From positions 864,001-928,000 of the forward strand of contig JAWLHY010000003.1 of the NCBI GenBank assembly GCA_041690135.1: a DNA stretch of 64,000 nt, given 5' to 3'. Below are positions 3,299 through 63,012 of the stretch, piece by piece. This stretch comes from Armatimonadota bacterium (GTDB lineage: Bacteria > Armatimonadota > SYMT01). Position 1 is the first letter of the stretch; every line of letters starts with the position of its first letter. The position numbers and the translations under genes were made by a program. The notes under the pieces were generated by a model. That model was not told the DNA's origin and ran no database searches. It worked only from the letters and a program-made list of their open reading frames with translations.

Positions 3299-3367
3299 CT
3301 CCGGGTCACAGGAACGACGGCCGCCTTCCTCGGCAGCCTTGCGGGATCCTGCGTACTCTTCGCGCCA

Positions 3368-3479
3368 CGCCGACGAGGTTAGCTGACGGGCTCGGGCCGG
3401 AAGAGTCTGGCCCGTTCCAGGCAAGCCTGGAATTCGCCCCAACGACTTGGGTCCCCCGTTCCCCCAGTGGGATTAGGCG
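3368..3479 (-). ncRNA. Cyclic di-AMP riboswitch (ydaO/yuaA class)
   Basis: Minus strand CGCCTAATCCC...GGAACGGGGGACCCA...TTGGGGCGAAT...CCCGAGCCCGTCAGCTAACCTCGTCGGCG matches the conserved blocks of the ydaO aptamer. Confidence 0.85.
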
Positions 3480-3595
3480 TTCTGTTATGGGGTCTCCGGG
3501 CGTTTTCACTTCATGCGACGCCCGGCTTGTCCCTACGTTATAAGTCTACCCTCCCCGGTTGTACACCGGTTCCCCCTTCGTGACTCCCGTCACAA

Positions 3596-8823: not shown

Positions 8824-8897
8824 TCCCTATCCTCTGGTGCGATGGTGCGAGAGTTCCCGACCCTGAACGGTCGGGCTTTAGTAAAGCACGCTGCCAC

Positions 8898-8916
8898 ACC
8901 CCCTCGGGGCGCAAGC
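8898..8916. repeat. 19-nt palindromic micro-insertion (CCCCTCGGGG core), dispersed copy
   Basis: ACCCCCTCGGGGCGCAAGC; 17/19 identical to the copy at 17189-17207. Confidence 0.65.
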
Positions 8917-9258
8917 CTCCGTGGGCGCCCGGTCCGCGTACAAAGCGCCGACAGAATCACAGGACGAAGCGTGCGGGCAATAGGCGCGGAAGTATACGCG
9001 CCTAGCCGAAAATGGGGAGCCCCAAAGTGTACTCTGGAAGCAGTCCTGTCGCATCCCAGGCAACACAGCACGCGAGCCACTCCTTTTAGAGATCGGCATT
9101 AACGCACCTTCGGTTTGTACTTTGCGGGCGGGTCTCCCTCCCCGGACTGTTGGAACCGGGCGGATCTGGGTAACCGGCGACTGGGCTGAGGACCACTGCG
9201 AGGCGAGGGTTCACGGTCGAAGGAGAGCAAGTTGATGGAAGAACGAAGAGAGCGAGAG

Positions 9259-16664: not shown

Positions 16665-17123
16665 ATGAGCGCTACCCGAATTCAGTGCTTACTCGACGCG
16701 CCCCGTGACAAGGTCTACAACGCTTTGATCGACGCGAATGCCATCCCGCGGTGGAGGGTGCCGGAGGGGATGCGCTGCCACGTCCACACGTTCGAGGCGT
16801 GGGAAGGGGGCGCCTTCCGGGTCTCCCTGACCTATGACGCACCGACCGGTACGGGCAAAACGACCGCGCACACCGACACGTACCACGGCCGCTTCGTGGA
16901 GTTGGTGCCGAACGAACGGGTGGTGGAAGTGGTGGAGTTCGAGACGGACGATCCGGCGCTTCAGGGCGAAATGACCATTACCACCACGCTTGCGGATGCG
17001 GACGGCGGCACCGACCTAACCGCCGTGCATGAGGGACTGCCGCCCGGCGTGTCACCCGCGGACAACGAGTTGGGCTGGAAAATGTCGCTCGCGAAGCTGG
17101 CGGTGCTCGTAGAGGAAGGCTAA
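16665..17123 (+). CDS. SRPBCC (AHSA1-like) domain protein
   Basis: APRDKVYNAL, GRFVELVPNERVV, GWKMSLAKL. Confidence 0.9.
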   Translation: MSATRIQCLLDAPRDKVYNALIDANAIPRWRVPEGMRCHVHTFEAWEGGAFRVSLTYDAPTGTGKTTAHTDTYHGRFVELVPNERVVEVVEFETDDPALQGEMTITTTLADADGGTDLTAVHEGLPPGVSPADNELGWKMSLAKLAVLVEEG

Positions 17124-17181
17124 AGGATTGCCGAAATGACCGTTGCGGCTGGGCGAGTGAACTCGCGCCTACAAAGGGCGA

Positions 17182-17218
17182 AGCCGACACCCCCTCGGGG
17201 CGTAAACCTCCGTCGGCT
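17182..17218. repeat. REP-like hairpin interrupted by a 19-nt palindromic micro-insertion
   Basis: AGCCGAC[ACCCCCTCGGGGCGTAAAC]CTCCGTCGGCT; removing the bracketed 19 nt gives a perfect 7-bp hairpin. Confidence 0.75.
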
Positions 17219-17346
17219 AGACACACTCGAGCGGTTATTCGTTGACAGATCCTAAGGGGCAGCCACGCACACACCAATTGTTTTGCGTCGCACACCCGGT
17301 AGGATCGTGCTACCCTTGGGAAGGCAGGCACCCGTTGGAGGGCGAT

Positions 17347-17526
17347 GTGCGTTTGATCATTGAGATCGATCAAGAAGAAGACGGGCGCTTCATTGCCGAG
17401 GTGGTCGACTTACCTGGCGTAGTTGCTTATGGCGAAACCAACGACGAAGCTCTCGCTCTCGTCCAGGCTCTCGCCCTCCGCGTGCTGGCAGAGCGGGTGG
17501 AAAACGGCGAGCCGCTTCCCCTCTGA
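17347..17526 (+). CDS. hicB: HicB-like antitoxin (short form)
   Basis: IEIDQEEDGRFIAEVVDLPGVVAYGETNDEAL; GGAGG upstream of the GTG start. Confidence 0.85.
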   Translation: MRLIIEIDQEEDGRFIAEVVDLPGVVAYGETNDEALALVQALALRVLAERVENGEPLPL

Positions 17527-24500: not shown

Positions 24501-24530
24501 AAAAAGCGCTCCGGACCGAGTCCGGAGCGC
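24501..24530 (-). terminator. Intrinsic terminator after tRNA copy 3
   Basis: GCGCTCCGGAC-TCG-GTCCGGAGCGC perfect 11-bp stem plus TTTTT. Confidence 0.85.
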
Positions 24531-24532
24531 GA

Positions 24533-24633
24533 TGCGGAAGGGGGGACTTGAACCCCCATGGATTTCTCCACACGCCCCTCAAACGCTTGCCCCCCCTCGG
24601 GGGGTAAACGTCTGCCAATTCCGCCACTTCCGC
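24533..24633 (-). pseudogene. tRNA-Leu(GAG) copy disrupted by a palindromic insertion
   Basis: Identical to 25441-25522 except TGCG is replaced by CTTGCCCCCCCTCGGGGGGTAAA (24586-24608), net +19 nt. Confidence 0.85.
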
Positions 24634-24923
24634 TATTCTGGAAACTCGGTGCACCGGGTCCCGTGCTCCCGCATGTAGGCTTCCTTCTCGGCGCGGGTGT
24701 GGTGTTTGAACCAGCTCTCCAGCCGGCGCGCGGCCGGGGCATCGGGCTGGACCTCATACCAGAGGAGCGTCACCGGCAGGTGCATCCGGGTGATCGTCGG
24801 GCCACGCCCCGCCTGGTGCTCCCGAACCCGTTCTTCCAGCCGCTGCGTGATGCCGGTGTAGTAACGCCCGTCCGCCAGCAACAGCACGTAGACGTACCAC
24901 ACGGGGGAGGGGGCTTCGCTCAT
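24633..24923 (-). CDS. Stand-alone GIY-YIG nuclease (96 aa), copy 2
   Basis: WYVYVLLLADGRYYTGITQRLEERVREHQAGRG...ARRLESWFK: both GIY-YIG tyrosine motifs plus conserved Arg, His and Glu. Confidence 0.92.
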   Translation of the reverse strand: MSEAPSPVWYVYVLLLADGRYYTGITQRLEERVREHQAGRGPTITRMHLPVTLLWYEVQPDAPAARRLESWFKHHTRAEKEAYMREHGTRCTEFPE

Positions 24924-24954
24924 CGGAACTCGAGATGAAGGGGTCGGTGGAATC

Positions 24955-24984
24955 AAAAAGCGCTCCGGACCGAGTCCGGAGCGC
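24955..24984 (-). terminator. Intrinsic terminator after tRNA copy 2
   Basis: Same 11-bp stem plus T-tract. Confidence 0.85.
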
Positions 24985-24986
24985 GA

Positions 24987-25087
24987 TGCGGAAGGGGGGA
25001 CTTGAACCCCCATGGATTTCTCCACACGCCCCTCAAACGCTTGCCCCCCCTCGGGGGGTAAACGTCTGCCAATTCCGCCACTTCCGC
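24987..25087 (-). pseudogene. tRNA-Leu(GAG) copy disrupted by a palindromic insertion
   Basis: Same sequence as 24533-24633. Confidence 0.85.
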
Positions 25088-25377
25088 TATTCTGGAAACT
25101 CGGTGCACCGGGTCCCGTGCTCCCGCATGTAGGCTTCCTTCTCGGCGCGGGTGTGGTGTTTGAACCAGCTCTCCAGCCGGCGCGCGGCCGGGGCATCGGG
25201 CTGGACCTCATACCAGAGGAGCGTCACCGGCAGGTGCATCCGGGTGATCGTCGGGCCACGCCCCGCCTGGTGCTCCCGAACCCGTTCTTCCAGCCGCTGC
25301 GTGATGCCGGTGTAGTAACGCCCGTCCGCCAGCAACAGCACGTAGACGTACCACACGGGGGAGGGGGCTTCGCTCAT
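25087..25377 (-). CDS. Stand-alone GIY-YIG nuclease (96 aa), copy 1
   Basis: Same protein as 24633-24923; its TAG stop shares the G with nucleotide 1 of the tRNA copy. Confidence 0.92.
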   Translation of the reverse strand: MSEAPSPVWYVYVLLLADGRYYTGITQRLEERVREHQAGRGPTITRMHLPVTLLWYEVQPDAPAARRLESWFKHHTRAEKEAYMREHGTRCTEFPE

Positions 25378-25408
25378 CGGAACTCGAGATGAAGGGGTCG
25401 GTGGAATC

Positions 25409-25438
25409 AAAAAGCGCTCCGGACCGAGTCCGGAGCGC
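25409..25438 (-). terminator. Intrinsic terminator of tRNA-Leu
   Basis: 11-bp stem plus TTTTT, 2 nt after the tRNA discriminator base. Confidence 0.85.
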
Positions 25439-25440
25439 GA

Positions 25441-25522
25441 TGCGGAAGGGGGGACTTGAACCCCCATGGATTTCTCCACACGCCCCTCAAACGTGCGCGT
25501 CTGCCAATTCCGCCACTTCCGC
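25441..25522 (-). tRNA. tRNA-Leu(GAG), intact, CCA not encoded
   Basis: GCGGAAG acceptor stem, D-arm GCGGAATTGGCAGACGC, anticodon arm CACGT-TTGAGGG-GCGTG, long variable arm, GGGGGTTCAAGTCCCCC T-arm. Confidence 0.97.
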
Positions 25523-62644: not shown

Positions 62645-63012
62645 CGTGGCAGGCCCCCTGGTCAGGGATCCTGTCTCGTACCCCACGGCGGTTCGGTTTT
62701 CCCACAGCGCACAGTTCTGCCGCCCCTCCGGGGCTCTCGTATGCCCTCTCCAGGTCCGGGGGTTCACACCCCCGGCTATTTCCTCTTCGCCCCTCCGGGG
62801 CTACGAACCGACTCTCATCGACAACTGAGCCGCCCTATCGCGTTCCCGAACTCCTTATCCTTGTCGTAATCGTAATCCTAATCCAACCCGGCCCCCTGGT
62901 CCGGTCACCTGCTCATACCCGGCTCCTGTTGTCGATATCGCAAAGGCAATTCTTGCCAAGCTCTCTTACCCTCTCCGTGGCCTACTCCGTGTCTCCGTGA
63001 CTCCGTGGTGAG
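62645..63012. repeat. Cluster of REP-like repeats, including inverted relatives of the 12.4-12.7 kb family
   Basis: GCCCCCTGGTC at 62653 and 62891; CGCCCCTCCGGGGCT at 62721 and 62788 flanking the hairpin CCGGGGGT-TCAC-ACCCCCGG; CTAATC/GTAATC hexamers; CTCCGTG repeats. Confidence 0.75.

Follow-up and report, generated by a model that had tools for sequence, protein, structure and literature searches.

The 64,000-nt window analysed here (positions 864,001 to 928,000 of contig JAWLHY010000003.1 in the Armatimonadota assembly GCA_041690135.1, which comprises 9.10 Mb in 25 contigs, with 65% GC) contains at positions 17182 to 17218 a short hairpin that is interrupted by a second, smaller palindrome. 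The arms of the outer hairpin, AGCCGAC (17182-17188) and GTCGGCT (17212-17218), enclose the loop CTCC (17208-17211), and a 19-nt module with the sequence ACCCCCTCGGGGCGTAAAC (17189-17207) lies between the 5′ arm and that loop. Uninterrupted paralogues of the outer hairpin read gaagccgacctccgtcggct. The module is a discrete unit, which is present or absent at otherwise equivalent sites, measures 19 nt, and is accompanied by no consistent target duplication.

In a frame shifted by one base (17188-17206), the module is CACCCC-CTC-GGGGCG-TAAA on the plus strand and TTTA-CGCCCC-GAG-GGGGTG on the minus strand, to which it is assigned; its edges are ambiguous by 1 to 2 nt. A GC-rich stem of 6 bp encloses a 3-nt loop and is followed by a tail of 4 nt with the form YAAR, which is TAAA or, less often, CAAG (approximately 18 copies in the genome). 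The other copies in the window are likewise on the minus strand. One of them (8897-8915) is a CAAG-tail variant (CACCCCCTCGGGGCGCAAG) that occupies the same arm/loop junction in a hairpin of a different family of repeats, family B, which resembles repetitive extragenic palindromes (REPs). The remaining two (24590-24608 and 25044-25062) are identical to each other, read CCCCCC-CTC-GGGGGG-TAAA, and interrupt two copies of a tRNA-Leu gene, referred to below as tRNA*. Direct reading gives identity at 17 of 19 positions between 17189-17207 and the tRNA* segment 24591-24609 (CCCCCCTCGGGGGGTAAAC); this match and the flanks at 17182-17218 are as described in an earlier, sequence-only reading of this DNA. 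The degenerate IUPAC motif of that reading has 4 matches in the window, compared with 0.35 expected, and none of 100 shuffles contained 4 or more.

Genome searches bear out the earlier claim that the 19-nt unit is dispersed. The 20-mer CACCCCCTCGGGGCGTAAAC is found in 39 exact copies, compared with 7.6e-5 predicted by base composition, and the numbers of copies rise to 103 at up to 3 mismatches and 159 at up to 4, whereas the reversed genome yields 6 matches, all of them with 4 mismatches. After filtering, 164 copies form the working set. A structural scan of the whole genome for a 6-bp stem, a 3-nt loop, and a TAAA tail, in which Watson-Crick pairs are required by construction, returns multicopy subtypes, namely, CACCCC-CTC-GGGGCG (39 copies), CCCCCC-TGT-GGGGGG and CACCCC-TGT-GGGGCG (18 each), CCACCC-CTC-GGGTGG (11), CACCCC-CGC-GGGGCG (9), and GCCCCC-CTC-GGGGGC (8), with further, rarer ones. 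Stem pairing is kept in the multicopy variants CCACCC/GGGTGG, GCCCCC/GGGGGC, CCCTCC/GGAGGG, and TACCCC/GGGGCA; the case for a conserved stem is built on the compensated subtypes of the structural scan, which do not amount to an independent test of pairing. The second stem pair, A.C on the plus strand, is G.T on the other strand and A-T or C-G in the variants, a pattern that is weak evidence for folding of the TTTA... strand. As single-stranded DNA, either strand is predicted to form the nested hairpin (−7.9 and −9.9 kcal/mol, with z values of −1.5 and −2.8), which is unremarkable taken alone. The genome also contains a second nested module, CACCCAC-NNN-GTGGGTR-CCCGG, in 36 copies (e.g., at C2:352709-352791 and C3:635000-635082), which sometimes shares a family-A or family-D hairpin with the 19-nt module.

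Rather than being unique, the outer hairpin at 17182-17218 represents hairpin 2 of a dispersed repeat of approximately 110 nt, family A. In this repeat, hairpin 1 (GCGAGTRAACTCGC) is joined through a linker (GGCTACAAA..GCGAA) to hairpin 2, and the tail that follows ends in ...GGTTATTCCTTGACAGATCCTAAG. In the window copy (plus strand, approximate ends 17146 and 17263), hairpin 1 is GCGAGTGAACTCGC, the linker before hairpin 2 is GCCTACAAAGGGCGAA, and the tail ends in ...GGTTATTCGTTGACAGATCCTAAG. A regular expression for hairpin 1 finds 56 family-A copies, 12 of which contain the module; most of the others read gaagccgac-ctcc-gtcggct or have gcctgc/gcaggc or gccggc/gccggc arms. The tail of the window copy contains a TTGACA motif about 100 nt upstream of an open reading frame starting with MRLIIEIDQEEDGRFIAE (window 17230-17400). 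This frame may encode a HicB-type antitoxin, which its product resembles, and the family-A repeat may supply a promoter.

The same position, between a 5′ arm and a CTNC loop, is occupied by the module in at least four further repeat families (B, C, D, and D′), whose stems are unrelated. The family-B repeat of the window (approximately 8856-8932, plus strand) has cccgaccctgaacggtcggg as hairpin 1 and, beyond a linker, gccac...gtgggc as hairpin 2, the loop of which is CTCC. In family E, the module is followed by a ctctcccacgctgcgggagagggg hairpin. Other copies are found in tandem octamer arrays (GTGTTCGG/GTGTTCAG and relatives) and between heptamer direct repeats, such as ctttgcg, cttcgtg, and cttggcg; a host hairpin is thus not required for insertion. 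The module occurs in hairpin loops and in a tRNA gene and behaves like a mobile unit, in agreement with the proposal of the sequence-only reading that it inserts into structured DNA.

Long octamer arrays (GTGTTCGG/GTGTTCAG/GTGGTCAG, and also arrays of the GGTTGAAG and AGTTCCG types) carry their own module subtypes, e.g., at C13:71590-71740 and C3:574120-574250. They often adjoin a hairpin repeat, GGAGCGCGGACGTCCCGTCCGCC, which flanks a gene for a transposase of the REP-associated tyrosine transposase (RAYT) type at C14:178027-178233. Clusters that resemble bacterial interspersed mosaic elements, with alternating family-B and family-C repeats and several filled copies within a few hundred bases, are found at C3:530074-530709, C2:367678-367941, and C14:167438-170781.

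Empty counterparts of filled sites are abundant. When the 19 nt are taken out in silico and the joined flanks serve as BLAST queries against the genome, an ungapped match that crosses the junction by 10 nt or more on each side is obtained for 119 of 168 candidates; the list of 168 takes in about 6 hairpins that are probably outside the family and a few tandem self-matches. According to these approximate searches, filled and empty forms both occur in families A, B, C, D, and D′, and the per-family counts (22 in A, 9 in B, 5 in C, 6 in D, 23 in D′, and 1 in E) are insensitive, the module expression having missed degenerate copies. The net gain at filled sites is always 19 nt. For 9 of the 12 filled family-A copies, the nearest neighbour, after removal of the module, is an empty copy, and the filled copies appear not to represent a single sub-lineage, as far as 110-nt sequences, which resolve poorly, can indicate.

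An orthologous empty site is found in a soil-metagenome contig (187 nt, depth 5.9; record 8, run X2). Among sequencing runs, only three soil metagenomes contain small shares (0.05-0.06), and the parts of the 1-kb query stretch that went uncovered are uninformative. This contig spans window positions 17157 to 17362 at about 98% identity, with 4 substitutions and a single gap, recorded as "17187 left out 19." The stretch 17225-17362 has no second copy in the genome, so the contig represents the same locus in a relative, with the hairpin uninterrupted. The earlier observation that deletion of the palindrome restores an intact hairpin extends from the window locus to its paralogues and to this orthologue.

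The boundaries of the insert show a defined target. In 114 of the 164 copies, a C precedes the loop, which makes the boundary ambiguous by one base in most copies. The dinucleotide AC is indeed present on both sides of the module at 17182-17218, as was reported, but its interpretation as a 2-nt target duplication does not hold: only 30 of 164 copies are preceded by A, no 2-nt repeat is seen in copies located in gcctgC... stems or octamer arrays, and the arrangement at this locus is a local chance occurrence. Read as TTTA-CGCCCC-GAG-GGGGTG, the module lies directly 3′ of a short site, NNANR, with A at position −3 in 153 copies (104 of 114 distinct contexts) and a purine at position −1 in 145. 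The upstream pentamers include GAACA (23 copies), GGAGG (22), GCAGG (13), GTAGG (11), CAACG (10), and GAATG (10), among others, and the positions downstream of the module are much less constrained. In REP-like hosts, the NNANR site comprises the GNAG loop of hairpin 2 and the base that begins its 3′ arm. The last C or T of TAAAC or TAAAT derives from the target, which is why the arrays show TAAAT.

The target extends to a tRNA gene. Positions 24503 to 25410 of the window consist of two tandem 454-bp units, identical at 454 of 454 positions, directly downstream of an intact tRNA-Leu(GAG) gene (25441-25522, minus strand); a third unit of the tandem matches for 83 nt, to position 25493. Each unit contains a terminator-like hairpin, a GIY-YIG gene, and tRNA*, a tRNA-Leu(GAG) sequence that is interrupted after D-arm position ~25 (24533-24633 and 24987-25087, both on the minus strand). 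The 96-aa GIY-YIG protein, encoded at 24633-24923 and 25087-25377 (the latter on the minus strand), scores 48.1 bits with the Pfam GIY-YIG model and has no NCBIfam match; its membership in the element is not supported. ARAGORN does not call tRNA* as it stands and calls tRNA-Leu(GAG) after removal of the 19 nt in silico. The sequence-only reading had stated correctly that tRNA* is exactly 19 nt longer than the intact gene, but the insertion is not clean, given that 23 nt (CTTG...TAAA) replace 4 nt (TGCG) between sides that are otherwise identical. In the tRNA sense, the site is ...CAGACG^TTTA... on the 3′ side of the D loop, with A at −3 and G at −1, and so fits the target rule. Three additional substitutions (CAAG for CGCA) lengthen the palindrome; CAAG is the alternative tail found elsewhere, and these changes may have arrived with the insert or later. 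At 24586-24612 and 25040-25066, again in the tRNA sense, TTTA on one side and CAAG on the other give the near-palindrome ACGTTTA...CAAGCGT. Elsewhere in the window, Rfam models recognize a c-di-AMP riboswitch (3354-3489, minus strand; 94.4 bits) and an Acido-Lenti-1 RNA (62756-62802, plus strand; 40.2 bits).

The exact module type, with 75 matches in this genome, is absent from a sample of 400 other genomes of the phylum, and no match with up to 1 mismatch is found in 40 relatives. These absences show only that this exact sequence is specific to the lineage. The family-A host repeat is present in two other genera of the same family, represented by the genomes G004 and G005, which indicates that the host is older and more widespread than this module sequence. 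All 4 family-A copies seen in G004 are empty; among the 11 matched copies in G005, 9 are empty, 1 is filled, and in 1 the repeat gives way to unrelated sequence at the same point. The insert in G005 is cognate to the module but differs from it in sequence; it reads GCCCCC-NNNN-GGGGGC-TATA, occupies exactly the same arm/loop junction, and has 4 copies, distributed over two host sub-families. This kind of insert is thus not confined to one genome. A family-A-like copy, G005:C88:1-300, has hairpin 2 followed by a module-like start (agcccccgta...) and then unrelated sequence, and may represent a further insertion at the same point.

Searches with the exact pattern against 185,579 species genomes returned two single matches, apparently coding (a PadR-like "...ITPAGRKRL" frame), and viral contigs returned 5 single matches without a repeat context; all of these are taken as chance. 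The exact 20-mer is also found once in each of two unrelated metagenome contigs, L009:1029-1048 (53% GC) and L010:411-430 (39% GC). In L009, the 20-mer is preceded by GAATG, as are copies in the present genome. These two occurrences could reflect either chance or a wider distribution.

The genome encodes nine proteins that match the Pfam family Y1_Tnp (PF01797). NCBIfam models assign three of these to IS200/IS605 transposases (77, 57.8, and 74.6 bits, with a cut-off of 55) and three to REP-associated tyrosine transposases (104.2, 87.7, and 102.7 bits, with a cut-off of 80). The IS200-like gene at C11:209659-210000 has family-C and inverted family-B copies on both sides, of which the left ones are empty, the first two on the right are filled, and the next one shown is empty. 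A second IS200-like gene, C2:54557-54895, is flanked by empty, inverted family-D′ copies. Y1 proteins are also encoded at C1:627841-628185, C1:749332-749616, C9:14121-14351, and C23:493-765. Other Y1 genes have flanking repeats of their own, one of which is GGAGCGCGGACGTCCCGTCCGCC, the repeat that also adjoins octamer arrays. Families B, C, and D′ are REP-like repeats that flank IS200-like Y1 genes, and the parallel with REP/RAYT systems that had been drawn from sequence alone turns out to be the literal context of the module.

The 19-nt unit is interpreted here, with moderate confidence, as a REP-like nonautonomous micro-element that is probably moved by a Y1 transposase. It would spread as single-stranded DNA and would find its target in hairpin loops that single-strandedness exposes. 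Excision and insertion would be performed by one of the Y1 (HUH) tyrosine transposases of the genome (three IS200-like and at least three RAYT-type ones), in a manner similar to that of IS200/IS605 elements and to that proposed for REPs.

Among the alternatives, the one that survives best, although it is unlikely, is that the module is a long-loop allele of the REP families, which has been copied with amplifying filled master copies and passed between families by gene conversion. According to the REP survey of Di Nocera et al. (2013, PMC3733652), REP families may have alternative loops, some of them self-complementary, and families with coexisting short and long self-pairing loops have been described. 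Such an origin is also consistent with the tracking of module subtype and host type and with the presence of the cognate module of G005 at the same arm/loop junction. However, the same 19-mer recurs in at least five host families whose stems are unrelated, and also in octamer arrays, at heptamer-repeat sites, and in a tRNA gene; the filled family-A copies are not clustered; and the locus 17182-17218 is empty in the ~98% identical relative. In addition, the module varies much less than its hosts do. For 55 REP-loop copies, the pairwise identity of the module is 0.91, compared with 0.43 and 0.55 for the 19 nt on either side, and the respective values for family A (8 copies in this classifier) are 0.99 for the module and 0.74 and 0.68 for the flanks.

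Hairpins are prone to deletion during replication, and the filled state could accordingly be ancestral, with the empty sites resulting from precise replication-slippage deletion of an unstable hairpin. The 1-nt repeat (C...C) that borders most copies (114 of 164) would fit such a process, and the single orthologous comparison cannot be polarised. Nevertheless, this explanation is distinctly improbable: within family A, 44 of 56 copies are empty, as are all those seen in G004 and 9 of the 11 in G005, and a deletion of exactly 19 nt guided by a 1-nt repeat would have to recur many times. Furthermore, inserts that are old and decaying would be expected to vary more than their hosts, and the opposite is seen.

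It is more doubtful still that the module is a selected functional site (a protein-binding hairpin, an RNA stabiliser, or a terminator) that recurs because it is useful and is not mobile. The hairpin and tail are conserved, and the copies are depleted from long open frames: frames of at least 300 codons span 59 of 164 copies, compared with 494 of 600 random sites, which is a rough proxy, given that spurious frames are long at 65% GC. However, function does not explain exact 19-nt presence or absence at equivalent sites or an inactivated tRNA copy. There is no T-run after the module hairpin, and Rfam 15 gives no match to the element at the gathering threshold and none at an E value of ≤10 in 17080-17300.

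The view that the neighbouring GIY-YIG nuclease mobilises the palindrome, put forward in the sequence-only reading, is largely refuted and has hardly any probability left: the two modules that lie 94 nt from GIY-YIG genes are copies of one 454/454 identical tandem unit and represent one event among ~164 copies, with ~160 modules located elsewhere; these tandem copies account for two of the five Pfam GIY-YIG matches in the genome, and the other three have no canonical module within 48 kb (one 4-mismatch look-alike is found 491 nt from a weak partial match); and in the relatives G005 and G006, neither a tRNA nor a module accompanies the GIY-YIG homologues (32 to 40% identity) at the 4 loci examined, G006 having no module match with either pattern.

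Several observations weigh against the interpretation of the module as a Y1-mobilised micro-element. No enzyme is linked to the module, which is found beside a Y1 gene only as a passenger of host REPs, in the C11 flanks, and in its bare form at the ends of no Y1 gene. The orthologous empty site consists of one 187-nt assembled contig from one run, in which insertion and precise deletion are indistinguishable. The tRNA* event was not clean, and the correlation of module subtype with host type fits co-amplification with the host as well. Among 51 distinct variants (a list limited to 4 mismatches or fewer), compensatory double changes number 6, compared with 29 changes on a single side. Lagging-strand asymmetry would be expected, but no bias of module orientation relative to local GC skew is seen (44/28 against 48/44), the sign of the skew being a crude proxy in a set of unordered contigs. 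Finally, REPs are defined in PMC3733652 as tagged palindromes of 20 to 40 bp with a terminal GTAG (or degenerate GYRG) or CGTC tag. At 19 nt, the module is just below this range, a borderline case, and its tag, TTTA(C) or CTTG before the hairpin, is neither GTAG nor CGTC; GNAG is found instead in the host loop, beside the insertion point.

More broadly, and only tentatively, the module might represent a class of bacterial "loop-invading" micro-transposons of 19 to 20 nt, possibly the smallest mobile DNA known in bacteria. These would be parasites of REP-transposase systems that borrow the Y1 enzyme, target single-stranded REP loops, and occasionally do harm, as in the tRNA-Leu copy, with diverged cognates in related genera and at least one further module type in the same genome.

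It has long been asked how REPs spread, and their movement has rarely been documented directly. The present genome is an unusually clean case, with a 19-nt unit, exact boundaries, many filled and empty sites, a defined target, and one locus that differs between near-identical relatives. Candidate Y1 enzymes are encoded in the same genome, so that synthetic oligonucleotides could be used to test what the minimal substrate of a Y1/RAYT-type reaction is. The module also illustrates that repeat hairpins can themselves be colonised and that such a micro-insertion can knock out a tRNA gene, which annotation pipelines would miss.

Among known mobile DNAs, the module resembles miniature inverted-repeat transposable elements in being nonautonomous, dispersed, and short, but it lacks a target-site duplication and any terminal inverted repeats other than the hairpin itself and is 3 to 15 times smaller. 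Mobile hairpin elements are also known from organelles, as the GC clusters of yeast mitochondria and the palindromes of Volvox, and repetitive hairpin-forming elements are reported from sponge mitochondria (PMC2800124). Like the module, these hairpins are tiny and GC-rich and invade both intergenic DNA and one another; unlike it, they are organellar and are not known to be linked to Y1 transposases. In the searchable part of PMC, supplements being outside the search, no paper contains the module sequence strings and none deals with a nested 19-nt element.

The IS200/IS605 elements IS608 and ISDra2 recognise hairpins and insert 3′ of a short target without duplication; the mechanism of IS608 and ISDra2 is treated in 10.1101/279083. 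The module shares with them the absence of a target duplication, the location 3′ of a short oligonucleotide, a recognisable hairpin, and the presence of Y1 HUH transposases in the genome. It differs in that it is a single hairpin, with no two different ends, is an order of magnitude smaller, shows no strand bias by the crude skew proxy, and has no cognate transposase assigned.

The similarity to REPs is more extensive. The module is a short palindrome with a high copy number in one genome (39 exact and ~160 related copies), has a conserved unpaired tag at one end and a stem that is kept by paired changes, and occurs in a genome with Y1 transposase genes flanked by its host repeats. In contrast to REPs, it is seen in its bare form at no Y1 gene end, its hosts are themselves REP-like, so that the nesting is one level deeper, and it also interrupts a tRNA gene. 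The GTAG and CGTC families, as described in the part of PMC3733652 considered, do not include it, and it appears to be a new variant of the REP kind. The closest precedent is provided by the GTAG-23 REPs of Thermomicrobium roseum, which sit within small palindromes of which hundreds of empty copies are known. The module is likewise found inside other small palindromes with abundant empty copies, and it differs from this precedent in having a defined NNANR target, a hit in a tRNA gene, and an orthologous empty site.

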